Source of the DNA: a virus | Reading direction: 5' to 3' (one strand) | DNA length: 30,871 nt | Virus genome (UHGV): UHGV-0057520 | Shown: positions 3,228 to 30,871 of the stretch, one piece after another | Layout: every line of letters begins with the position of its first letter | Position numbering within the stretch: position 1 is the first letter of the stretch | The notes under the pieces: generated by a model | The model's database searches: none | Seen by the model: the letters and a program-made list of their open reading frames with translations, nothing else | Told to the model about the DNA's origin: nothing | Position numbers and translations under genes: made by a program

Positions 3228-3389
3228 ATGACAAAACGTCGTAAGAAATACCAGGAAAAAGAAGAGATTCGACACCCTGATTCACCTGAGGGATTAGTGG
3301 TAGCCGCAGCAAATAACAGGGCGTTCGCAGAGCGCCTTGTTGGTGTTTACAGACTAGCCAAAGCAGGAGTGAAACATGGGCGTCGTTAA
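3228..3389 (+). CDS. possible small basic protein, 53 aa, between cII and the replication initiator
   Basis: ATG at 3228 with AGGAG 6 nt upstream; absent from the ORF track (under 60 aa); overlaps the initiator start by 14 nt in another frame. Confidence 0.3.
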   Translation: MTKRRKKYQEKEEIRHPDSPEGLVVAAANNRAFAERLVGVYRLAKAGVKHGRR

Positions 3390-4266
3390 GTTAGCTGATT
3401 ACAGGCATAACCCTGTACAACATCAGGAGGCATCCAGTATGGGGTATGTCTCTATACACCGCCAGTTTATGGACAGCAGGCTCTATAAGGACTCTCAGGC
3501 AGTACATCTTTGGCTTCACTTAATTCTCAAGGCTAATCACGAATCTACTGTCGTCAATACGGATATCGGGCCGATAACTGTTGATCGCGGTCAGATGATA
3601 ACTGGACGCCCGTCGCTGGTCAGAGAAACATTCATCCCCGACAACAAAGTTCGGAGCTTATTACGGACTTTTGAGTCGAAAGGGATGCTTAATATTTGCT
3701 CGATGGGGAAGAAATTTAGCCTGTTTACAATCGTTAAATATGACGATTTTCAGGCAAAAAATTGTCCAACGGTTGTCCAACGGTTGTCCAACGCAAACAC
3801 CAGTAATGGCGCGGCTCTCAGCGGAGATTGTCCAACGGTTGTCCAACAGTTGTCCATAAACAATAATATAAATAATATCTCTAATACTGACGTATTAGAG
3901 AGTGCCACAGCAGACAAAAAGTCTGACAAGAAAAAACCTTCCGTTAGCTGTCAGGATGTTGTCGATGCTTACCACGAAATCCTTCCTGAAGCGCCAAGAA
4001 TCCGCGCACTGAATGACAAGCGTAAAAACCAGATCCGAACGTTCTGGCGCAAAGCCGGAGTGATAACCCGCCAGCTTGACGGGCATGGGTTCACGATGCA
4101 GGACTGGAGAAATTATTTGAGCTACGTAGGCGAAAATTGCCGATGGATGTTCGAAGAACGCCCAAACCATCAACGCGGAACCGTCTGGCACAAAAAGGGA
4201 TTTGATTTCCTGCTTAACGACAATACCTACCTGAAAGTTCGTGAGGGTGAACACGATGACCGATAA
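3376..4266 (+). CDS. replication initiation protein (lambda O / P22 gene 18 analogue)
   Basis: 296 aa directly upstream of the helicase gene; contains the origin iteron array inside its coding sequence, as lambda O does; AGGAG ribosome-binding site before 3376. Confidence 0.7.
   Translation: MGVVKLADYRHNPVQHQEASSMGYVSIHRQFMDSRLYKDSQAVHLWLHLILKANHESTVVNTDIGPITVDRGQMITGRPSLVRETFIPDNKVRSLLRTFESKGMLNICSMGKKFSLFTIVKYDDFQAKNCPTVVQRLSNANTSNGAALSGDCPTVVQQLSINNNINNISNTDVLESATADKKSDKKKPSVSCQDVVDAYHEILPEAPRIRALNDKRKNQIRTFWRKAGVITRQLDGHGFTMQDWRNYLSYVGENCRWMFEERPNHQRGTVWHKKGFDFLLNDNTYLKVREGEHDDR
3762..3900 (+). repeat. replication origin: six direct iterons (TTGTCCAACGG-like) plus adjacent AT-rich segment
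   Basis: Copies at 3762, 3773, 3784, 3827, 3838 and 3849 (last truncated), followed by AAACAATAATATAAATAATATCTCTAATACT; translated as the repeated CPTVVQRLSN peptide. Confidence 0.7.
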
Positions 4267-5692
4267 TTTTTATGCGCCGCCCCATAGCATCGAGGCAGAG
4301 CAGGCGGTGATTGGTGGATTGCTTCTGGATGATGACAGCAGTGAGCGCGTCCAGAAAGTTCTGGCGATGCTGAAGCCTGATTCATTTTACAGCCGACCAC
4401 ACAAAATCCTTTTCGAAGAAATAACCAGAATGCACCGGGAGCAAAAGCCAGTAGATGGCCTGACGCTTTTCGATGAACTGGAGCGTAAATCGTTAACGGC
4501 GTCTGTTGGCGGTTTTGCTTATATCGCTGAGATCGCAAAGAACACGCCAAGCGCAGCAAACATCGTTGCCTATGCAATGCAGGTTCGCGAAACCGCAATG
4601 GAACGCTATGCCATCAACCGCATGACTGAAGCGACGGAATTGCTCTATTCCCGCAACGGAATGACTGCAACGCAGAAGTACGAAGCTATTCAGGCGATTT
4701 TCACGCAACTGACAGACCATGCAAAAACCGGATCGCGTCGCGGCCTTCGCTCATTTGGTGAGGTCATGGAAGACTGGGTTAGCGACCTTGAGAAGCGATT
4801 TGACCCGTCAGGCGAACAACGAGGAATGAGCACAGGGATCCCATCTCTGGACAGGATGCTGTCACCGAAAGGTCTGGTGAAAGGCTCTCTGTTCGTCATT
4901 GGCGCTCGCCCTAAGATGGGGAAAACGACGCTATACAGCCAGATGGCAATCAACTGCGCAGTGCATGAGAAAAAGCCCGCTCTGATGTTCAGCCTTGAAA
5001 TGCCAGGTGATCAGATACTTGAAAAACTGGTAGGACAGAAGTCAGGTGTTAACCCAAATATTTTTTACCTTCCGGCGACAAATGACGCCGATGACGGCTA
5101 TCAGGGTGATTACGATGGTGACTTCAACAGGGCGATCGAAACAGCTAATCGCTTGAGTGAAATCGACATGCTTTACATCGACGACACGCCGGGATTATCT
5201 CTGGCTCAAATCGTCAGCGAAAGCCGTCGAATCAAGCGAGAAAAAGGATGTGTTGGCATGATTCTGGTCGATTACCTGACACTAATGACCGCTGAGAAGG
5301 CCGATCGCAACGACCTTGCTTACGGCATGATCACCAAAGGACTGAAGAACCTTGCCAAAGAGCTTGATTGCGTTGTTGCGCTTCTGACGCAGCTTAACCG
5401 CGCATTGGAAAGCCGAACCAATAAACGCCCATTACCAAGTGACTCGCGCGATACAGGACAGATTGAACAGGATTGCGATTATTGGGTGGGGATCCATCGT
5501 GAAGGTGCTTTTGATGACAGTGTTCCACCTGGTGAAACCGAACTAATCCTTCGTCTCAATCGTCATGGCAATACCGGCACGGTGTATTGCATTCAGGCAA
5601 ATGGCGCTATTTATGACACAGACCAACAGTCTGCTGAAATGCGCCGCCGTGAACGCGAGGAACCGCAGTCCAAGAAGAAAGGAGGATTCTGA
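4256..5692 (+). CDS. DnaB-family replicative helicase (P22 gene 12 analogue)
   Basis: ORF track starts on GTG at 4241; ATG at 4256 with GAGGGTG upstream; DnaB-like N-terminus (HSIEAEQAVIGGLLLD) and Walker A (GARPKMGKTT). Confidence 0.85.
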   Translation: MTDNFYAPPHSIEAEQAVIGGLLLDDDSSERVQKVLAMLKPDSFYSRPHKILFEEITRMHREQKPVDGLTLFDELERKSLTASVGGFAYIAEIAKNTPSAANIVAYAMQVRETAMERYAINRMTEATELLYSRNGMTATQKYEAIQAIFTQLTDHAKTGSRRGLRSFGEVMEDWVSDLEKRFDPSGEQRGMSTGIPSLDRMLSPKGLVKGSLFVIGARPKMGKTTLYSQMAINCAVHEKKPALMFSLEMPGDQILEKLVGQKSGVNPNIFYLPATNDADDGYQGDYDGDFNRAIETANRLSEIDMLYIDDTPGLSLAQIVSESRRIKREKGCVGMILVDYLTLMTAEKADRNDLAYGMITKGLKNLAKELDCVVALLTQLNRALESRTNKRPLPSDSRDTGQIEQDCDYWVGIHREGAFDDSVPPGETELILRLNRHGNTGTVYCIQANGAIYDTDQQSAEMRRREREEPQSKKKGGF

Positions 5693-7735: not shown

Positions 7736-7920
7736 TGCTTAGCCCATCCCAATCCCTTCAATACCAGAAAGAAAGCGTCGAGCGAGCTTTAACGTGCGCT
7801 AACTGCGGTCAGAAGCTGCATGTGCTGGAAGTTCACGTGTGTGAGCGTTGTATATATGAATGCTTAAATATGGTGGAACATAATGAGAAATATAAGCAAC
7901 ATAGACGAATTAAGAAATAA
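7735..7920 (+). CDS. small Cys-rich protein (NinF-like zinc ribbon)
   Basis: 61 aa with a CxxC...CxxC pattern; its 3' end runs into the AT-rich HNH gene. Confidence 0.4.
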   Translation: MLSPSQSLQYQKESVERALTCANCGQKLHVLEVHVCERCIYECLNMVEHNEKYKQHRRIKK

Positions 7921-8389
7921 ATTATCATATGATGATGTTTTAGGTGTACTTAGATGGAAAGTGTCTCCTTCTAATAATGTTAAGGTTGGCAGTGTTGCTG
8001 GTTACATTAGGAGTGATGGTTATAGGATGTTAACTATCGATGGTGTAATTACTTATGCTCACCACGTTATATGGATGATAAATAATGGTGAGATTCCATT
8101 AGGGTATAAAATTGATCATATAAATGGAGTAAGGTCAGATAATAGGCTATCTAATCTTCGATTGGTTACACACCAACAGAATGCACAGAACCAAAAGAGA
8201 AAAATAACCAATTCGTCAGGAGTGACTGGAGTATATTTCAATAAAGAGAGATGTAAGTGGATTGCGAATATATGCGTAGATGGGCGCACCAAATATCTTG
8301 GAATATTTGCTAGCATCATTGACGCTATTGCAGAAAGGAAGAGGGCAGAAAAAGAACTGGGTTTTCATGAAAACCATGGCAGACCATAA
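7883..8389 (+). CDS. HNH homing endonuclease with AP2-like DNA-binding domain
   Basis: 168 aa; HNH motif IDHINGVRSDNRLSNLRLVTHQQNAQN; C-terminal SGVTGVYFNKERCKWIANICVDGRTKYLGIF resembles an AP2 domain; markedly AT-rich. Confidence 0.75.
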   Translation: MRNISNIDELRNKLSYDDVLGVLRWKVSPSNNVKVGSVAGYIRSDGYRMLTIDGVITYAHHVIWMINNGEIPLGYKIDHINGVRSDNRLSNLRLVTHQQNAQNQKRKITNSSGVTGVYFNKERCKWIANICVDGRTKYLGIFASIIDAIAERKRAEKELGFHENHGRP

Positions 8390-10060: not shown

Positions 10061-10135
10061 GGGTCAGTCGTATAAAGGTCATTACGGAAGGCTGTTAACC
10101 TTCTTATCGTGGTTCGAGTCCACGCTGTCCCGCCA
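10061..10135 (+). tRNA. tRNA-like gene, anticodon GUU (Asn), non-canonical D-arm and one acceptor-stem mismatch
   Basis: Manual fold: acceptor 6 of 7 bp, perfect anticodon stem GAAGG/CCTTC with loop CTGTTAA, T-arm CGTGG-TTCGAGT-CCACG, 3' GCCA. Confidence 0.5.
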
Positions 10136-10140
10136 AATAT

Positions 10141-10216
10141 GCTGGTTTAGCTCCAATGGTAGAGCAGTCGCCTTGTAAGCGAATGGGTAGCGGTTCAAGT
10201 CCGTTAACCAGCACCA
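10141..10216 (+). tRNA. tRNA-Thr (anticodon UGU)
   Basis: Manual fold: perfect acceptor stem GCTGGTT/AACCAGC, D-arm GCTC-CAATGGTA-GAGC, anticodon loop CTTGTAA, T-loop TTCAAGT, discriminator A and CCA; 5 nt after the first tRNA. Confidence 0.7.
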
Positions 10217-11878: not shown

Positions 11879-12421
11879 ATGAATTATCCAACTATCGTTA
11901 ACGGCATCGATTTCCGAGATCTGATTTTTGTGGCAAACAACGATCCGGTTACAGATTCTTTTATGGTGGCAAAAGCATTTGGAAAGCTGCCGAAGAACGT
12001 GGTTCGTGACATTGAACGAACCATAGAAGCTTGCCCTCCTGAGTTTGATACAAAGCTCAACTTTGAGCTTTGCTATAAAAACAATGAGTTACAGAATGGT
12101 AAGCCGCAAAAATTCTACCGTCTCCGCAAGGATGGGTTGATGCTTTTGGTTATGTCCTACACCAAAAAAGAAGCAATGCGTATCAAAATTGCTTACATCA
12201 ACGCATTCAACTGGATGTACGCCATGCTTCAGGTTGGTCATCGTCAATTTGAAGAAGAGAGAAATGCCGTAATGCTGGAGTACATGAAAGAGAAGGATGT
12301 TGCCAGCATGTCAGGCCGCCTGCTTAATCGCTGGGGAAAAATTAAGAAGCCTCAGCTACTGGCGAGAATTGAACGCCTTGAACAGCACGGGCAAACCGTA
12401 ATCCCCGGACTCACCAATTAA
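11879..12421 (+). CDS. rha: Rha-family phage regulatory protein
   Basis: 180 aa; N-terminal region resembles the Rha domain and sits between lysis and terminase genes, as in P22-like genomes. Confidence 0.6.
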   Translation: MNYPTIVNGIDFRDLIFVANNDPVTDSFMVAKAFGKLPKNVVRDIERTIEACPPEFDTKLNFELCYKNNELQNGKPQKFYRLRKDGLMLLVMSYTKKEAMRIKIAYINAFNWMYAMLQVGHRQFEEERNAVMLEYMKEKDVASMSGRLLNRWGKIKKPQLLARIERLEQHGQTVIPGLTN

Positions 12422-12648
12422 CGGCAGTACAGCGAAACAACCCAAGCCAGAAAGTGGGGAAATAACACTGGCAGCCACTGAAAGATGAACCTCCTGCCTT
12501 ATGGCAAGAAAGATTCTTTGTGGTGGCGGACTGATGGAAAGACATCGGTTATTGCAGAGGTCATTCAATGAGTGGTCTCGACAATGGCTTATACCCTACA
12601 CGGGATAACTTAACTGATATCCCTTTTAACGGATAAACGGAGCCAACA

Positions 12649-12891
12649 ATGGCAGAGATTATTCCCATGACTGAAGAACAGAAATTCCAGTTAGAGATTT
12701 ACAAGCTGGTCATGAACCAGAACGCAGCCGCAGAAGAAGCATTTCAATTCATTGGCACTGACGAGCTGAAGCTTGAGCTATTCAAAATTCACTTCCAGTC
12801 AGGCGGCGCTAATTCAGATATCACGACCCGCACTATCGAAGCGGTACGTAAATCGAAGGAGGCGTTAGACCTGTTCACTACCGGAGCATAA
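12649..12891 (+). CDS. hypothetical protein, 80 aa, upstream of terminase
   Basis: GGAG ribosome-binding site; no family recognised. Confidence 0.45.
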   Translation: MAEIIPMTEEQKFQLEIYKLVMNQNAAAEEAFQFIGTDELKLELFKIHFQSGGANSDITTRTIEAVRKSKEALDLFTTGA

Positions 12892-12893
12892 AC

Positions 12894-13334
12894 ATGGCGC
12901 GCCCAACAAAGTATCAAGAGGCGTATGCCGAACAGGCACGCAAACTGTGCTTGCTGGGCTACACCGATGCAGAGCTTGCTGATTTCTTCGAAGTCAGTGA
13001 GTCAACTATTAACAAGTGGAAGCTTGATTATCCTGAGTTTTCGGAGTCCATAAAAAAGGGTAAGGCCGTCGCTGATGCAGAAGTTAGTGATCGTCTTTAT
13101 CAACGCGCTATGGGCTTCGTGGCTCCAGACATCGATATTCGTGTTATTGAAAACAGAATTGTCGAAACTCCGCTTGAGAAGTATTACCCGCCTGATACAA
13201 CCGCCGCCATCTTCTGGCTTAAGAACCGACAGAAGGATAAATGGCGCGATAAGGTTGATCACGAGCTAACAGGCAAAGACGGCGGCGCAATCCAGATTGA
13301 AACATCACCGATGAGCACTCTATTCGGAAAATGA
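12894..13334 (+). CDS. terminase small subunit
   Basis: 146 aa directly upstream of and overlapping the large terminase; HTH-like N-terminus (YTDAELADFFEVSESTINKWK). Confidence 0.75.
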   Translation: MARPTKYQEAYAEQARKLCLLGYTDAELADFFEVSESTINKWKLDYPEFSESIKKGKAVADAEVSDRLYQRAMGFVAPDIDIRVIENRIVETPLEKYYPPDTTAAIFWLKNRQKDKWRDKVDHELTGKDGGAIQIETSPMSTLFGK

Positions 13335-14746
13335 CCTCGATTAATCCTATCTTTGAACCGTTCATTGAGGCGCATCGCTATAAAGTCGCCAAAGGCGGTC
13401 GAGGTAGCGGTAAGTCATGGGCAATCGCGAGGCTGCTTGTTGAAGCGGCGCGTCGGCAGCCGGTGCGTATTCTCTGCGCTCGTGAACTGCAAAACAGTAT
13501 CAGCGATTCGGTAATCCGGTTGCTTGAAGACACCATAGAGCGGGAAGGGTATTCGGCTGAGTTTGAAATTCAGCGTTCAATGATTCGTCATCTCGGAACG
13601 AATGCTGAGTTCATGTTCTACGGCATCAAAAACAACCCGACGAAGATTAAATCGCTCGAAGGCATTGATATCTGCTGGGTGGAGGAAGCGGAAGCGGTAA
13701 CGAAGGAATCATGGGATATCCTGATACCAACCATCCGCAAGCCATTTTCCGAAATATGGGTGAGCTTCAACCCGAAAAACATCCTCGACGATACCTATCA
13801 GCGATTCGTAGTAAACCCTCCCGATGATATTTGTCTGCTGACGGTGAACTACACCGACAACCCGCACTTTCCTGAAGTTCTCCGTCTGGAGATGGAAGAG
13901 TGCAAACGCAGAAATCCGACACTGTATCGTCACATCTGGCTTGGTGAGCCGGTAAGCGCAAGTGATATGGCAATCATCAAACGTGAATGGCTTGAAGCCG
14001 CAACCGATGCGCACAAGAAACTCGGATGGAAAGCGAAAGGTGCGGTTGTTTCTGCGCATGACCCGTCAGATACAGGGCCAGATGCTAAAGGTTACGCATC
14101 GCGTCACGGTTCGGTGGTTAAGCGCATTGCCGAAGGTCTGCTGATGGACATCAACGAGGGTGCTGACTGGGCTACTTCGCTGGCGATTGAAGACAGCGCT
14201 GACCATTACCTGTGGGATGGTGATGGCGTCGGTGCGGGGCTACGCAGACAGACAACGGAAGCATTCTCCGGTAAGAAAATCACCGCCACGATGTTCAAGG
14301 GCAGTGAATCGCCATTCGATGAAGATGCGCCGTATCAGGCCGGAGCATGGGCTGATGAAGTCGTACAGGGCGACAACGTTCGCACTATTGGTGATGTGTT
14401 CCGCAATAAGCGAGCGCAATTCTATTACGCGCTGGCTGACAGGCTGTATCTGACATATCGGGCGGTTGTCCACGGTGAGTATGCAGACCCCGACGACATG
14501 CTGAGCTTCGACAAAGAAGCGATAGGCGAGAAGATGCTGGAGAGGCTGTTTGCAGAACTGACGCAGATTCAGCGCAAATTCAATAATAACGGGAAGCTGG
14601 AGCTTATGACTAAGGTCGAAATGAAGCAGAAGCTCGGTATCCCATCTCCTAACCTGGCTGATGCGCTGATGATGTGTATGCATTGCCCGGAGTCGGCTGC
14701 GCAACCCGACTATTCCAGTTACTCAATTCCTTGTGGTGTAGGTTGA
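13331..14746 (+). CDS. terminase large subunit (ATPase/nuclease)
   Basis: 471 aa; Walker A VAKGGRGSGKS near the N-terminus; size and position match P22/Sf6-type large terminases. Confidence 0.9.
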   Translation: MTSINPIFEPFIEAHRYKVAKGGRGSGKSWAIARLLVEAARRQPVRILCARELQNSISDSVIRLLEDTIEREGYSAEFEIQRSMIRHLGTNAEFMFYGIKNNPTKIKSLEGIDICWVEEAEAVTKESWDILIPTIRKPFSEIWVSFNPKNILDDTYQRFVVNPPDDICLLTVNYTDNPHFPEVLRLEMEECKRRNPTLYRHIWLGEPVSASDMAIIKREWLEAATDAHKKLGWKAKGAVVSAHDPSDTGPDAKGYASRHGSVVKRIAEGLLMDINEGADWATSLAIEDSADHYLWDGDGVGAGLRRQTTEAFSGKKITATMFKGSESPFDEDAPYQAGAWADEVVQGDNVRTIGDVFRNKRAQFYYALADRLYLTYRAVVHGEYADPDDMLSFDKEAIGEKMLERLFAELTQIQRKFNNNGKLELMTKVEMKQKLGIPSPNLADALMMCMHCPESAAQPDYSSYSIPCGVG

Positions 14747-14747
14747 T

Positions 14748-16946
14748 ATGGCAGAAAAAAAGATGACTGACTGGCATCGCAAGGTGCTGTGCAACTTTGA
14801 TAATGCCTGGTCAGCAACGCAGGATATGCGTGAGCAGATTATTGAGGCTCAACGTTTCGTCCGGGTGTCCGGCGCACAGTGGGAAGGCAGCACAAACGCT
14901 GGTTACTCATTTGATGAAGGCAGGTTTGAGCATTACCCGCGCTTTGAACTGAATAAGATTGCCCGTGAATGTGATCGCATCATTGGCGAGTATCGACAGA
15001 ATCGCATCAGCGTTAAATTCAGGCCGAAGGACGATAAGGCATCGGAAGCGTTAGCCGAAAAGATGAACGGCAAATTCCGCGCTGACTATCAGGAAACATC
15101 CGGTGGCGAAGCGTGTGATAACGCATTTGATGATGCTGTAACGGGCGGATTCGGTTGTTTCCGCATGTGTGCCGATTACGAAGATGAAATGGATCCGAGT
15201 AACGAGCAGCGCCGCATCAGACTTCTTCCTGTTTACGACCCAGCGACATGCGTCTTCTTCGATCAGGACAGCAAGCAATATGACCGTTCTGATGCTATGT
15301 GGGCTATGGAAATGTTCTCCATGACGCCTAAAGCGTTCGAGACTGAATACCCTGATTCCATCGCGGCAAGCCTTTCTCGTGATGACACTGGCACTCAGTA
15401 TGACTGGTCAACGCCCGATGCCATCTATGTTGGACGCTACTACGAAGTTCGCATAGAGAAGGTGAAGCTCACGGCGTGGCGCAACCCTGTTAGCGGAGAA
15501 ACGGCAATCTATGATGAAGAGCAAATCAAAGATATTGTTGACGAGCTGACCGATGGCGCATTCGAACTGATTGGCGAGCGGACAGTGAAGAAACGCCGCG
15601 TTTATTGCGGCCTTCTGTCTGGCGCTGAATGGCTGGAAGAACCGAAGCGTATTCCGGGCGAACATATTCCTCTCATCCCGGTATATGGGCGTCGCTCATT
15701 TGTTGATAATCAGGAGCGAATCGAAGGCCACGCTGCAAAAGCGATGGATGCACAGCGTCTTGAGAACCTGATGGTTTCCATGATTGCAGATAACGCTACT
15801 CAGGCTGGCGGTGATGGCATTCCTATCGTGGATGTTGATTTCATTCCCGGTCCATTAATGAATCACTGGGCAGAGAGGAATAAGAAAAGACCAGCAGTTC
15901 TTCCCATGACCAGCAAGAAGGACAAAAACGGAACGGTCATTTCAGAGGCTCAGGTTGCTGGCTGGACGCCTCCGACACAAATGCCTCCAGCTCTTGCCGG
16001 GCTATTGCAGTACACCGGAACGGCTATTCAGCAAATTACAGGTGCTTCGCAGCTTGAGAACATGCCGAGCAACGTCGCCACCGATACCGTTGATAGCATT
16101 TTTAACCGGATGGACACGCAGTCCTATATCTACATGGACAACATGGCTAAATCCATGCGTCGCGCTGGCGTTGTGTGGCTTTCTATGGCGCGTGAAGTCT
16201 ATGGCAGCGATACGCCGATGCGTATCGTTAATGAGGACGGCAGCGATGACGTGGCGCTGATGACTGGTGAAGTGGTTGACCGTCAGACAGGGCAGGTTAT
16301 CGCGCTTAACGACCTTTCGCAGGGTAACTATGAAGTGACTGTCGATGTCGGTCAGTCGTTCGCTACTCGCCGTGATGCAACGGTTAAGTCGTTACTTTCC
16401 ATGCTGGCACTTATCCCGCCAGGAACGCCGAAGCATGACCTTGTATCGTCGATGATTCTCGACAATATGGACGGCGAAGGGATGGACGACCTGAAAGAAT
16501 ACAACCGCAATCAGTTGCTTCTGTCTGGCGTTATCAAGCCGAGAACGCCTGAAGAACAGCAAATGGTTGAGCAGGCGAAACAACAACAGGCCAGTCAGCC
16601 AGATCCGGCTATGGTTGCTGCGCAAGGTCAGCTTCTTGCTGGTCAGGCTGAATTGCAGAAAGCGCAGAACGAACAAGCAGCCATTCAGGTTAAAGCATTC
16701 CAGGCACAGACGGATGCTCAGGTTGCTGCGGCAAATGTTGTGAAAATCCTCGCATCTGCCGATAGCCAGCAAAAATCTGATATCCGTGAGGCGCTGAAAC
16801 TGCTCGGACAGTTCCAGCAACAGCAAGGAGATAATGCCCGTGCTGATGCAGAGCTTGTCCTGAAGAGTCAGGCGCAGGGCCATGCGCAGCGCATGGACAT
16901 CAACAGCATCCTGCAAAAATCAACTCAGCAACAACCACAGCAGTAA
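14748..16946 (+). CDS. portal protein
   Basis: 732 aa immediately after terminase; Gln/Ala-rich C-terminal helical extension as in the P22 portal. Confidence 0.85.
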   Translation: MAEKKMTDWHRKVLCNFDNAWSATQDMREQIIEAQRFVRVSGAQWEGSTNAGYSFDEGRFEHYPRFELNKIARECDRIIGEYRQNRISVKFRPKDDKASEALAEKMNGKFRADYQETSGGEACDNAFDDAVTGGFGCFRMCADYEDEMDPSNEQRRIRLLPVYDPATCVFFDQDSKQYDRSDAMWAMEMFSMTPKAFETEYPDSIAASLSRDDTGTQYDWSTPDAIYVGRYYEVRIEKVKLTAWRNPVSGETAIYDEEQIKDIVDELTDGAFELIGERTVKKRRVYCGLLSGAEWLEEPKRIPGEHIPLIPVYGRRSFVDNQERIEGHAAKAMDAQRLENLMVSMIADNATQAGGDGIPIVDVDFIPGPLMNHWAERNKKRPAVLPMTSKKDKNGTVISEAQVAGWTPPTQMPPALAGLLQYTGTAIQQITGASQLENMPSNVATDTVDSIFNRMDTQSYIYMDNMAKSMRRAGVVWLSMAREVYGSDTPMRIVNEDGSDDVALMTGEVVDRQTGQVIALNDLSQGNYEVTVDVGQSFATRRDATVKSLLSMLALIPPGTPKHDLVSSMILDNMDGEGMDDLKEYNRNQLLLSGVIKPRTPEEQQMVEQAKQQQASQPDPAMVAAQGQLLAGQAELQKAQNEQAAIQVKAFQAQTDAQVAAANVVKILASADSQQKSDIREALKLLGQFQQQQGDNARADAELVLKSQAQGHAQRMDINSILQKSTQQQPQQ

Positions 16947-17036
16947 TTAACCCATAACGTGCAATGGCTGTCTTTATGAGGCCTGGCACCCTATTGCCTT
17001 CCGATGGGCTGAACATCGAGTAAACAGGGGTAAAAA

Positions 17037-17930
17037 ATGGACCAGATGGCAGAAAACACACCAGAAGTTGAAATCGAAACCGACGCGTCAGAGCAGATTC
17101 CTGATGATGTCGAACTGGCTGAAGAAGTCGAAACAGCAGATGGCAGTGAGTCCTCAGGAAATGATGCAGAGGAAGCTACTGACACTGATGACGACGAATC
17201 AGAACAGGAATTCTACTTTGGTGACGAAAAGCTGGATTCGCCAACCAGCGAAGATGGAGCTGAGCATGGACTGGTAAAACACTTGCGCAAGACGATTAAA
17301 GAGAAAGACCGCGAGCTGAAAGAGCTGATGCGTCAGTCTCAGAAACCCGTCGAGCAGCAGCCGGTAATCACTCAACCACCGCGAATGCCAAAACTGGACG
17401 ATGAGGACATCGGTTTCGATGAAGAAATCTACCAGCAACGCATGGCTAAGTGGGCAGAGGATAACGGCAAATACCAGGAGCAAGTACGAGAGCGGAAACG
17501 AGAGGAAGAGGCGCGTACCGCAACGCTTCAGCAGAAAGCAGCCAATTACATGCAGAGAGTAAAAGCACTGAAAGTGGCTGGCTACCAGGATGCAGAGCAG
17601 GCTGTACGCGAAGATGTTCCTGTTCATATTCAGGACATGATCCTTCTTGAGTCAGAGAAGCCGGAAATCGTTGTTCTGGCGCTCGGTCGCAACGCTGAAC
17701 TGCGCAAGCAACTGGCAGAAGCTACCAACCCCGTAGCAATTGGTCGTCTGCTGGAACGTATCGAATCGAAGGCCAGAATCATGCCAAAAGCAAAAACCAC
17801 GGCAGCCACAACCCCGACAGTTAAGGGGAGCAACGGCGCAGTAATCAACAACCTCGACAAATTGAAAGCCAAGGCGCTGGAAACTGGTGACTGGACGCCG
17901 TATTTCGCCGCTAAAAAGGCAAAAAAATAA
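17037..17930 (+). CDS. scaffolding protein
   Basis: 297 aa, highly acidic N-terminus, charged helical C-terminus, between portal and coat genes. Confidence 0.8.
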   Translation: MDQMAENTPEVEIETDASEQIPDDVELAEEVETADGSESSGNDAEEATDTDDDESEQEFYFGDEKLDSPTSEDGAEHGLVKHLRKTIKEKDRELKELMRQSQKPVEQQPVITQPPRMPKLDDEDIGFDEEIYQQRMAKWAEDNGKYQEQVRERKREEEARTATLQQKAANYMQRVKALKVAGYQDAEQAVREDVPVHIQDMILLESEKPEIVVLALGRNAELRKQLAEATNPVAIGRLLERIESKARIMPKAKTTAATTPTVKGSNGAVINNLDKLKAKALETGDWTPYFAAKKAKK

Positions 17931-17948
17931 CCTATCGGAGCATTAAGC

Positions 17949-19238
17949 ATGGCTAACCAATTAGCAAAAGACCTTGAAATCATGTTCGAAAACTACGTTG
18001 AAGGCTTTGAGGCCGCCTGCGTAGTTTCCCATAACGCTAAAAAATTCCGTCCCGGTGATACAGCAATGCAGCGAGCAGGTGATGTTCTGTATCGTCCGCA
18101 GCATTACCACATGAACATTGAGGAAGGCCTCGATCTCAGCAGCAAAACGCCTACAGCACTGGTTCAGCGCCTTGTTCCTTCTGTGTTCAAGGAGCCGAAA
18201 AACATTCTGTACACTCTGGATGCGCGTGAAATGCGTGACCCTGAGCATAAAACTGAAGCTGGTCGCGCCGCAGGTATGCGCCTTGCTGCACAGATTGACT
18301 CTGACCTGATTTCCATGGTTACGCAGCGTGCTACTAACGTGATCACAATGTCTGACTCAACCACAGGTACACAGGGCCGTGATTTGTGGAACTGTGCGGC
18401 AGGTACACAGGGCCGTGATTTGTGGAACTGTGCGGCAGGTATTGATGCCACCATGACGGCGATTGGTGTACCGCAGGGTATCAACCGTCGCTCTTTCTGG
18501 AACCCCTTCAACTACAAAGACCTTGCTGGCGAGCTTGGTCACCGTGCCTACGCTCAGGGCGCAACCCTGACAGCATACGAAAAAGCGCAGATCCCTCCGG
18601 TTGCTTCCTTTGATAGCTACAAGACCGATATTTCTGGTCGATTACCGAAAGGAAGCGCTGAATCCTTGACAGTATCAGACCAACCTGAACACAAGGTTGA
18701 AGCGAAAGATTCAAATGGTATGCCAGTTGATAACCGACAGGGGACTATTACGGTATCTGCATCTGGCTTGCAGGTTGGTGATGCGTTCACCATTGCCGGT
18801 GTGAATTCCGTACACCAGATCACAAAAGATACCACCGGGCAACCGCAGGTATTCCGTGTTCTGGCTGTTAGCGGAACTACCGTAACAATCTCTCCAAAGA
18901 TTCTCCCTGTTGAAAATACCGATGTTGCGAGTCGTCCATATGCAAACGTCGATGCCAAACCGGCAGAATCAGCAGCAATCACCATTCTCAACAAGAACGC
19001 AGCACCTGCTAACCTGTTCTGGGCTGATGGTTCTGTTGAGCTGATGTACGGCAAACTAGCGTTCCCGACTGGTCAGGGTCCACAGGTAATGACAGCAACC
19101 ACCGAGCAGGGCGCTACGCTGATCATGTCTTACGCCTTCGACCACATCAAAGGCGTAACCACTGCTCGTTTCACCACTCTGTACGGTTGCTCTGTACTTG
19201 TTCCTGAATATACGGGCATCGTTATTGCCGGGCAGTAA
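17949..19238 (+). CDS. major coat protein (P22 gp5-like)
   Basis: 429 aa; several blocks parallel P22 gp5 as recalled (FRVLAVSGTTVTISPK, RPYANV, LFWADGSVEL); contains the tandem duplication at 18365-18436. Confidence 0.85.
   Translation: MANQLAKDLEIMFENYVEGFEAACVVSHNAKKFRPGDTAMQRAGDVLYRPQHYHMNIEEGLDLSSKTPTALVQRLVPSVFKEPKNILYTLDAREMRDPEHKTEAGRAAGMRLAAQIDSDLISMVTQRATNVITMSDSTTGTQGRDLWNCAAGTQGRDLWNCAAGIDATMTAIGVPQGINRRSFWNPFNYKDLAGELGHRAYAQGATLTAYEKAQIPPVASFDSYKTDISGRLPKGSAESLTVSDQPEHKVEAKDSNGMPVDNRQGTITVSASGLQVGDAFTIAGVNSVHQITKDTTGQPQVFRVLAVSGTTVTISPKILPVENTDVASRPYANVDAKPAESAAITILNKNAAPANLFWADGSVELMYGKLAFPTGQGPQVMTATTEQGATLIMSYAFDHIKGVTTARFTTLYGCSVLVPEYTGIVIAGQ
18365..18436 (+). repeat. perfect 36-bp tandem duplication inside the coat gene, in frame
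   Basis: AGGTACACAGGGCCGTGATTTGTGGAACTGTGCGGC occurs twice back to back, encoding two copies of a 12-residue unit (cyclic form TQGRDLWNCAAG). Confidence 0.9.
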
Positions 19239-19245
19239 TTTTGGT

Positions 19246-19266
19246 GGGGCTTCGGCCCCATTTTTA
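19246..19266 (+). terminator. rho-independent terminator or attenuator after the coat gene
   Basis: GGGGC-TTCG-GCCCC hairpin followed by ATTTTTATT. Confidence 0.6.
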
Positions 19267-19279
19267 TTGGGAGAAGACA

Positions 19280-19468
19280 ATGGCACGAACAATGCTCTAT
19301 AAGCCTGGCAACATGATCACCTGTGGTCAGTTTGCTGTCGATTACATCATTGTTGATGACGAAGAAGTTAAATCTCACCTGAAAAAAGGTTGGGTAAAAA
19401 CTCCTGAAGAAACCGCAACGAAGCAAAAAGTGGCTAAGGCGGAAGAAGATGGCGAAAACGAAGGGTGA
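19280..19468 (+). CDS. small hypothetical protein, 62 aa
   Basis: ATG at 19280 with GGGAGAAG upstream (ORF track starts at 19241); acidic C-terminus; overlaps the next gene start. Confidence 0.45.
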   Translation: MARTMLYKPGNMITCGQFAVDYIIVDDEEVKSHLKKGWVKTPEETATKQKVAKAEEDGENEG

Positions 19469-19910
19469 TCTCGTTCTAAAGGCTTTACGAAAAGCCGGGC
19501 TGTATTCCAATGCCACGTTGACAGATGCCGACCCTCAGGCAATTGAAGATGCCATTAATGACCTTGAAGACATGATGGCAGCATGGCAGGCGAAAGGTAT
19601 CGAGCTTGGATATCAGTTTGCGGATACAGAAAACGGCATCATGCCGTTACCTGACGATGATTCAGGTATCCCTGCATGGGCAAATGATGGCGTCGCTTTG
19701 AAGCTCGCTGTGCAAGTGTGCATGGATAACGTCATTCAGCCGTCGGATGCTCTCCTGACCGCTGCTGACAGTGCATATCAGACAATCTGTATCGCTTTAA
19801 CAAAAATACCACCACTTGAGCGGCGAAATGACATGCCTCGCGGTAGTGGTAACAAAAGCGCGTTTACGTGGAATCGGTTTTACATCGAGAAAGATGATCC
19901 GAGTACGTGA
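19449..19910 (+). CDS. tail accessory / head-completion protein (P22 gp4-like)
   Basis: KTKGDLV...LTD..PQ...DA..DLE.MMA.W and PRGSGN motifs parallel P22 gp4 as recalled. Confidence 0.75.
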   Translation: MAKTKGDLVLKALRKAGLYSNATLTDADPQAIEDAINDLEDMMAAWQAKGIELGYQFADTENGIMPLPDDDSGIPAWANDGVALKLAVQVCMDNVIQPSDALLTAADSAYQTICIALTKIPPLERRNDMPRGSGNKSAFTWNRFYIEKDDPST

Positions 19911-19919
19911 GGTGAATAA

Positions 19920-21338
19920 ATGCCGATTCAGCAACTTCCGCTCATGAAAGGTGTCGGCAAAGACTTCCGAAATGCCGACTATATCGACTATCTACCAGTG
20001 AATATGTTGGCTACACCCAAAGAAATCCTTAACAGCAGCGGATATCTTCGCTCATTCCCGGGCATTGCCAAACGCTCTGATGTAAACGGTGTATCGCGCG
20101 GAGTCGAGTACAACATGGCGCAGAATGCTGTTTATCGCGTGTGTGGTGGGAAGCTTTACAAAGGCGAAAGCGAAGTCGGTGACGTCGCCGGAAGTGGTCG
20201 CGTATCAATGGCGCATGGTCGGACATCTCAGGCTGTAGGTGTTAATGGTCAACTGGTCGAGTATCGCTATGATGGCACGGTTAAAACCGTCTCAAACTGG
20301 CCTACAGACAGCGGATTCACACAGTACGAGTTAGGTTCAGTTCGCGACATTACGCGCTTACGTGGGCGTTATGCGTGGTCAAAAGACGGAACTGATTCAT
20401 GGTTTATCACTGACCCTGAAGACGAATCGCACCCTGACCGATACAGTGCACAATATCGTGCCGAGTCTCAGCCTGACGGTATTATCGGCATCGGAACATG
20501 GCGAGACTTCATCGTCTGCTTTGGTTCATCGACGATTGAATATTTCTCCCTGACTGGTGCAACCACAGTTGGTGCTGCTTTGTATGTCGCACAGCCATCG
20601 CTGATGGTGCAAAAAGGCATCGCCGGGACTTACTGCAAAACGCCGTTTGCTGATTCCTATGCGTTTATCAGCAATCCGGCAACAGGTGCGCCGTCTGTGT
20701 ACATCATCGGTTCCGGGCAGGTGTCACCAATCGCCAGCGCGAGCATTGAGAAAATCCTCCGCTCCTACACTGCTGATGAACTGGCTGATGGCGTGATGGA
20801 GTCTCTGCGATTTGATGCTCATGAGTTGCTGATTATCCACCTTCCGCGTCATGTCCTCGTGTACGACGCATCTTCAAGCGCCAATGGCCCGCAATGGTGT
20901 GTGTTGAAAACTGGCTTGTATGACGATGTGTACCGCGCTATCGACTTCATTTACGAAGGCAATCAGATAACGTGCGGCGATAAGCTGGAGTCCGTGACCG
21001 GGAAATTGCAGTTCGATATCAGCAGTCAGTATGGTCTTCAACAGGAACACCTGCTGTTTACTCCGTTGTTCAAAGCGGATAACGCCAGAGTGTTCGACCT
21101 TGAGGTTGAGTCGTCAACTGGCGTTGCGCAGTATGCTGACCGCCTTTTTCTCTCTGCAACCACTGACGGCATCAATTACGGGCGTGAGCAGATGATTGAG
21201 CAGAATGAACCGTTCGTTTACGACAAACGTGTTTTGTGGAAGCGAGTAGGGCGCATCAGGAAAAATGTCGGCTTCAAATTGCGCGTTATCACGAAGTCAC
21301 CTGTCACTCTGTCTGGTGCTCAGATAAGGATTGAGTAA
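19920..21338 (+). CDS. tail accessory protein (P22 gp10-like)
   Basis: 472 aa; N-terminus [49 protein letters not shown] is nearly identical to P22 gp10 as recalled. Confidence 0.85.
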
Positions 21339-30541: not shown

Positions 30542-30871
30542 CGAACACATAATTACCGATGAAACAAAACTGAGACACACAAAGCTTTGCACTGGATTGC
30601 AAGGCTTTGTGATCTTCGATAGTGGTTAAGGTGGATCACTCCACCTTTTCATCAAGCCAATCCGCCCACCACTGCATCATTTCTCTGCGCTTAACGTAGT
30701 TGATGCATCACTATCACCCTGTAATGGCTTATTACTGGTTTGCAGACAGGTAGGCATGAACATATGCCTGCGCATGAAGATGGAACTAGTCCGGATGCGA
30801 TATTTTTGGTGATCACGTACATCATCAACGAAGTGCGTTATGGTGAGTTTGATGACTACCCGCTGAAGTGA

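Follow-up and report, generated by a model that had tools for sequence, protein, structure and literature searches.

An in-frame 36-bp tandem duplication in the coat protein gene of a CUS-3/P22-like prophage from a human gut sample

The virus genome UHGV-0057520, a stretch of 30,871 nucleotides that was analysed as a whole and is referred to here as the window, carries two head-to-tail copies of a 36-bp block within the gene for its major coat protein. This raises the questions of whether the second copy exists in the phage or only in the assembly, how and when it arose, and what twelve additional residues do to a protein that has to build a capsid. The initial annotation, made from the letters alone, offered either a recent slippage or recombination event tolerated by the capsid, or an artefact of assembly or sequencing. 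The reading that we consider very probable is that of a young, private slippage duplication in the coat gene of an integrated prophage, with the first copy looped out of the fold; the mechanism of slippage and the choice of the structural copy are the parts of it that we infer. The duplication is an ordinary mutation, by which a familiar mechanism has given a known protein one more allele, but it offers a clean textbook case of a tandem duplication flanked by microhomology and caught soon after its origin, in a well-studied capsid family with a solved structure.

The coat gene and its repeat

The window is a stretch of prophage of the typical P22-like (Lederbergvirus) kind, with modules that follow one another as listed below.

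Early modules, in order: N, CI-type repressor, CII, an initiator-like ORF with iterons, DnaB-type helicase, nin genes, Q
Late modules, in order: two tRNAs, lysis genes, terminase, portal, scaffold, coat
End modules, in order: gp4, gp10, needle, ejection proteins, tailspike

The coat gene lies after portal and scaffold and before gp4 and gp10, as expected for the P22/CUS-3 family, and the morphogenesis genes around it are all full length according to the ORFs and Pfam.

14748-16946, P22_portal (Pfam)
17037-17930, scaffold-sized ORF (ORF list)
17949..19238, plus strand, major coat (capsid) protein gene, 429 aa, CUS-3 type, HK97 fold with I-domain (ORF, Pfam, PDB, Foldseek)
19449-19910, P22_Tail-4 (Pfam)
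19920-21338, Phage_stabilise (Pfam)

Residues 1-428 of the coat ORF align with positions 1-423 of the 423 positions of the Pfam profile PF11651 (P22_CoatProtein; E 9.5e-72). The best match to a solved structure in sequence searches is the mature capsid of CUS-3 (PDB 8skg, E 1.8e-271), and the sole gap in that alignment is one of 12 residues, exactly at the duplication. P22 gp5 matches by sequence at only E 4.6e-34. Foldseek searches with an AlphaFold2 (AF2) model also placed 8skg at the top (E 1.6e-68, TM 0.82), and the P22 structures 8i1v and 5uu5 were matched at TM 0.78-0.83 with 25-28% identity. The gene thus encodes a CUS-3-type coat protein rather than P22 gp5 itself, to which its sequence is only distantly related. 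The earlier comparison with P22 therefore stands in part: P22 gp5 (5uu5, 8i1v) shares the Pfam family and the fold and has no duplication, but at this identity it is not the gene found in the window. The closer reference is the CUS-3 coat (8skg; I-domain 6mnt), which, with near-identical alleles in E212, EC.P3 and many E. coli prophages, is ∼96-99% identical to the coat protein of the window, and CUS-3 matches the window in the order of its genes (portal, scaffold, coat, gp4, gp10) as well as in the HK97 fold with an I-domain. From the CUS-3 type the window protein differs by the 12 extra residues, a duplicated GTQGRDLWNCAA, and by the substitution R28H; the others are all 417 aa long, as against 429 aa in the window. 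Several database entries for ‘coat’ proteins (among P0072 and P0102-P0114) are fused to unrelated proteins (DUF2824, tail needle, portal, NinB, gp16). Chimeric contigs or frameshifts in the gene calls probably account for these entries, which were left out of the length statistics.

The repeat itself is simple. Tandem Repeats Finder (TRF) reported a 36-bp unit in 2.2 perfect copies at window positions 18364-18441 (period 36, 100% matches, 0 indels, score 156), and in the raw sequence two identical 36-mers, CAGGTACACAGGGCCGTGATTTGTGGAACTGTGCGG, stand head to tail without a spacer and are followed by six more matching bases, CAGGTA.

18364..18399, plus strand, copy 1 of the 36-bp unit (TRF), encoding most of GTQGRDLWNCAA, residues 140-151
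18400..18435, plus strand, copy 2 of the 36-bp unit (TRF), residues 152-163
18436..18441, plus strand, CAGGTA, 6-bp microhomology that also starts each unit (DNA alignment with single-copy alleles)

The junction of the duplication falls between GCGG and CAGGTACACAGG, and the junction 24-mer is ACTGTGCGGCAGGTACACAGGGCC. Raw sequence, TRF and the ORF at 17949-19238 all bear out the perfect in-frame duplication first described for this gene, and the coordinates then given, 18365-18436, describe the TRF repeat in one of its seven equivalent registers. As 36 is a multiple of 3, the reading frame is kept, and the predicted addition of 12 residues is borne out by the translation, in which GTQGRDLWNCAA is found at residues 140-151 and again at 152-163. 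By simple arithmetic, perfect adjacent 36-mers are expected by chance ∼7e-18 times in the window (∼30871 × 4^-36), so a chance origin is negligible. A functional element on either strand was also considered and rejected; the minus-strand ORFs at 18164-18511 and 18357-18542 are taken as spurious because they lie inside a strongly supported coding gene.

Reality, age and origin of the duplication

Whether the second copy is real was judged from the records that contain the junction. There are five such records, differently assembled; each of the following is 100% identical to the window.

UViG_3300045988_081332 in IMG/VR, the same as JGI 3300045988 Ga0495776_115713, 30,723 bp, carries the junction
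UMIC01031918.1, 30,435 bp, carries the junction
ENA ERZ919660, ERR414484 k127_24013, 38,557 bp, carries the junction
ENA ERZ28597881, LIJU14-1_SAMEA2338854 scaffold_4, 472,315 bp, carries the junction

The record labels point to a single human gut run (ERR414484, PRJEB5224), and all records come from that run or are identical to it. They thus represent several assemblies of one data set and not independent samples, but since differently assembled records all carry the duplication, an error specific to one assembler is ruled out. De Bruijn contigs contain only k-mers present in the reads. The Logan contigs of the same run were built with k=31, and contig ERR414484_9680 starts at window position 18412 with the 30-mer GCCGTGATTTGTGGAACTGTGCGGCAGGTA, which forms the end of the repeated block and is followed directly by the first unique base. 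In a k=31 graph this 30-mer is a k-1 node with two successors, C leading back into the repeat and T leading out of it. A single-copy genome gives no branch there, and the branch is thus indirect evidence of junction k-mers in the reads. In this way, the point at which a small-k contig breaks off in a metagenome assembly graph can testify to a repeat at the level of the reads, even where these are not available.

An artefact would mean that the true genome is single copy and that the second unit was created by joining of overlapping contig ends, by gap filling or by chimeric reads. That all junction records trace to or equal one run and sample, and that the junction is in no other genome searched, would fit such an origin. 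However, the identical duplication is present in at least four assemblies of different name and size, whose contigs range over 30-472 kb, the k=31 contig begins exactly at the branch node expected of a true duplication, and the period of 36 together with the CAGGTA microhomology fits biological slippage. We therefore regard the artefact raised at the outset as disfavoured and very improbable. Overlap joining in particular, with a contig-end overlap (k or k-1) of 36, is compatible with the period alone and is contradicted by the agreement between assemblies and by the Logan branch point. The sample may nevertheless be a mixture in which the duplicated allele is in the minority or the majority next to a single-copy allele.

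The related genes place the duplication in time. All matching coat genes, in 11 of 11 phage records and in every listed match of 409 E. coli records, are 1254 nt long, which is 1290 minus 36. A 40-mer centred on the junction, whose halves on either side are too short to seed on the single-copy gene, had no match either among 5,426 complete E. coli genomes or among 50,697 phage records; a 38-nt junction pattern had none in 185,579 GTDB species genomes (one genome per species). A scan of viral and metagenome contigs for the junction found no independent occurrence, as every record it gave was 100% identical to the window. Alignment with related coat proteins, proposed earlier as a check, thus found single copies in all relatives examined, and rather than being common among related coats, which would have spoken against a recent event, the duplication is absent from the E. 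coli, phage and species-genome collections searched.

In E212 and in the ETEC1747 prophage the DNA is base-identical to the window over the site, minus the 36-bp insert. The nearest relative, found via its exact portal protein, is a prophage in E. coli assembly GCA_964038155.1 (L017/L019, here L019). Over 21,046 nt it is 99.98% identical to the window, with five differing sites besides the duplication, and its coat protein has 417 aa. With so close a relative still single copy, the duplication event is very recent. ETEC1747 (H12) had been considered as a wide comparator for private changes as well, but only its coat gene is near-identical; its flanks are ∼95% identical, that is, mosaic, and it was therefore dropped in favour of L019. 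All in all, the duplication is almost certainly a real, derived, very young and private allele.

When the five differences between window and L019 were polarised with four outgroups (L020, L021, L022, L016), only one was private to the window.

18031, plus strand, G->A transition, coat R28H at the end of the N-arm (polarised comparison)

Besides the duplication, R28H is the only lineage-private change in the 21,046 compared bases. A further candidate, G244D (G232D in single-copy numbering), appeared private in comparison with E212 and was rejected, as it is shared with L019. The duplication, R28H and G232D are the sole differences between the coat genes of the window and E212.

The single-copy alleles also suggest how the repeat was made. 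In E212, ETEC1747 and CUS-3 the hexamer CAGGTA occurs twice, 36 bp apart, and brackets exactly the segment that is duplicated in the window; in Sf101 the first site reads CTGGTT, i.e. the first hexamer is missing. A duplicated segment bordered on each side by a short direct repeat is the classic signature of slipped-strand mispairing of the Streisinger type. Such duplications have head-to-tail copies without a spacer and microhomology at the border, as does the coat gene of the window, and compared with known cases nothing is unusual here: a single event left two copies, without any hint of a repeat that is programmed or phase-variable. As the single-copy alleles have CAGGTA at either edge of the unit, recent slippage is the best explanation, and with the relatives single copy the slippage or recombination event proposed at the outset is the account we favour. 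In this scenario, the two CAGGTA hexamers of the ancestral coat gene would have mispaired during slipped-strand synthesis and thereby given rise to the 36-bp tandem duplication. The gene is that of a CUS-3/P22-like (Lederbergvirus) prophage residing in an E. coli chromosome in one human gut sample. An equivalent RecA-independent unequal exchange may have taken the place of slippage, since unequal exchange between sister strands at the CAGGTA microhomology has an outcome indistinguishable from that of polymerase slippage.

A second in-frame tandem duplication in a coat protein was seen in P0010 (HCC1175150.1, 430 aa), which belongs to the same 90% cluster and comes from a third-party Salmonella Paratyphi C assembly. 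It is imperfect, spans 13 residues (ISGRLPKGRAESF followed by ISGRLPKGSAESL) and is located at the linker between A-domain and I-domain, unlike that of the window. This protein has several odd substitutions besides the duplication, which may be real or may reflect a low-quality assembly.

Placement of the extra residues and possible effects on the capsid

The insertion site corresponds approximately to P22 residues 131-144, as mapped by sequence alignment and our own numbering of the P22 sequence. In P22 the A-domain comprises residues 128-221 and its mobile tip residues 158-209 (PMC9965877), which puts the site, located past the spine helix, at the very beginning of the A-domain and clear of the mobile tip. 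It does not coincide with the positions of P22-type coats at which insertions are tolerated, namely the T182/T183 loop and the C-terminus (∼131-144, not 180-185). The literature consulted on P22-type coats gives the domain limits and nothing on whether this loop faces inside, outside or an interface.

Structural modelling of the insertion site, suggested earlier as a check, was carried out with AF2. For the window coat, with an alignment of 32 sequences (pLDDT 84.7, pTM 0.84), the model has a strand at residues 130-134 and a helix at 154-171, and pLDDT falls below 50 only at residues 138-151, essentially copy 1. In the single-copy control P0016 (pTM 0.86), a confident loop of 7 residues (135-141) is followed by a helix at 142-159. 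Copy 1 is thus looped out in the model, and the A-domain helix starts in copy 2. The simplest reading of these models, which test it weakly, is that the native start of the helix is kept by copy 2, while copy 1 bulges out to form a longer loop. Low confidence in copy 1 was rejected as proof of disorder and is only weak evidence for it: homologous alignment columns are lacking for the inserted residues, so that the low values are in part built into the model. At the protein level, the event adds 12 residues (GTQGRDLWNCAA) where the A-domain begins, between its first strand (130-134) and the long helix. The downstream copy most likely takes the place of the native helix start and the upstream one is pushed out, so that the loop would grow to ∼19 residues compared with 7.

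How far this exceeds natural variation was assessed in an alignment of 106 homologs. The stretch from V131 to W159 has 27 residues in the window and 8-17 (mode 15) in the full-length, non-chimeric homologs, two chimeric fusion ORFs (0 and 7 residues) being disregarded. Among these full-length, non-chimeric members no loop as long as that of the window was found, which is 10 residues beyond the maximum. The loop is at the same time the most variable stretch of this region in the family, in length as well as sequence, and varies even among coats that share 93-96% identity elsewhere. The inserted piece is half an amphipathic helix and includes a copy of the family-invariant Trp (W159); since it is hydrophobic and contains this copy, misfolding is plausible.

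The change at residue 28 is also outside the range of the family, as His was found at this position in none of the 106 homologs (R in 59, K in 20, Q in 15). Both private mutations in 21 kb fall within the 1.25-kb coat gene, both alter the protein and none is synonymous, and the SNP would land in the coat gene with a probability of ∼0.06. This coincidence is suggestive only, and is as compatible with compensation as with early decay.

For tolerance there is an experimental reference in engineered insertions into the T183 loop of the P22 coat, which also place extra residues in an A-domain loop of a P22-family coat. Insertions of at least 3 residues at T183 allow procapsids to form but abolish infectious phage (Morris and Prevelige 2014, PMC4113789). 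T183, however, is in the axial tip loop, while the insert in the window is in the loop before the first A-domain helix, a different loop, for which the literature on P22-type coat insertions contained nothing comparable. In longer contigs from the same data, the tailspike gene is followed by PBP5/dacD-like, GyrI-like/sbmC-like, FUSC/yeeA-like, DUF496/yeeX-like and cbtA/cbeA genes. As these are E. coli chromosomal genes, the prophage is integrated, and its coat gene is therefore free of immediate selection. We judge that the duplication is silent in the lysogen, whereas its effect on the production of virions is uncertain and quite possibly harmful.

Two readings of a real duplication can be set against each other. 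We give roughly even chances to the one in which the extra residues cripple capsid assembly or maturation and the allele persists sheltered in the lysogen, as the first steps of prophage decay. The integrated state, the protein-altering nature of both private changes with none synonymous, and the discovery of the allele nowhere else in the collections searched are in line with such decay; moreover, half of a buried amphipathic helix, with its invariant Trp, is present once more in the duplicated piece, and insertions of at least 3 residues at P22 T183 block maturation (PMC4113789). Two mutations are nevertheless too few for inferring relaxed selection, elsewhere the 21 kb are intact and barely differ from the relatives, and the loop is naturally plastic. 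The other reading is that of an active phage in which an enlarged surface loop of the capsid is tolerated or even selected, R28H being co-adapted or compensatory. We consider it a real possibility, if one we would not bet on. The insert lies in a loop that varies naturally between 8 and 17 residues and differs between coats otherwise 93-96% identical, the predicted global fold is unchanged (pTM 0.84 vs 0.86), the flanking morphogenesis genes are all full length, and both lineage-private mutations in 21 kb are protein-changing and in the coat gene. The probability of the SNP lying there, P ∼0.06, is weak, however; the allele was found in no second sample and in no virion-derived sequence among the collections searched, the loop exceeds the natural maximum by 10 residues, and His28, absent from the family, fits decay as well as compensation. 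Insertions into the P22 A-domain are also poorly accepted in vivo, albeit in another loop (PMC4113789).

The most specific form of tolerance, in which the duplication and R28H are a co-selected pair in a still-active phage, with the pre-helix loop accepting a 12-residue insert and the N-arm change compensating for it, appears unlikely to us. If true, it would reveal a new display-tolerant site and a coupling between N-arm and A-domain in CUS-3/P22-type coats. Should the insert be tolerated by the capsid, its site would offer a new natural insertion point for the engineering of P22-type virus-like particles, given that T183 tolerates insertions poorly in vivo.

Other features of the prophage and its relatives

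In the longer contigs L012 and L013, positions 12069-20047, which lie past the window end at 30871, contain dacD, sbmC, yeeA and yeeX-like genes followed by cbtA/cbeA and radC-type genes. The gene order in these contigs thus indicates an integration site next to dacD. The dacD-side region is, we assume, the integration region reported for Sf101 (sbcB locus).

Several modules differ between the window and its closest relatives. Between Q and the holin gene, at 10061-10216, the window has a tRNA-Asn(GTT) and a tRNA-Thr(TGT). L019 has no tRNA at that place and instead contains a gene for a 170-aa HNH/AP2 endonuclease (L019 positions 4511-5468). With L019 otherwise 99.98-100% identical, the exchange of tRNA pair and endonuclease is a clean module swap. 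Six 11-bp iterons of the form TTGTCCAAC(G/A)G are present at 3762-3856, arranged in two blocks of three and followed by an A+T-rich stretch. They lie inside the ORF at 3376-4266, which encodes a 296-aa replication-initiator-like protein with no Pfam match, and the arrangement is that of a lambdoid origin. In the nin region, an ORF at 7883-8389 encodes a 168-aa HNH endonuclease that is also found in L019 and L022, has a variant form in L020 and is missing from L021; by this comparison it appears as one of the mosaic differences among close relatives.
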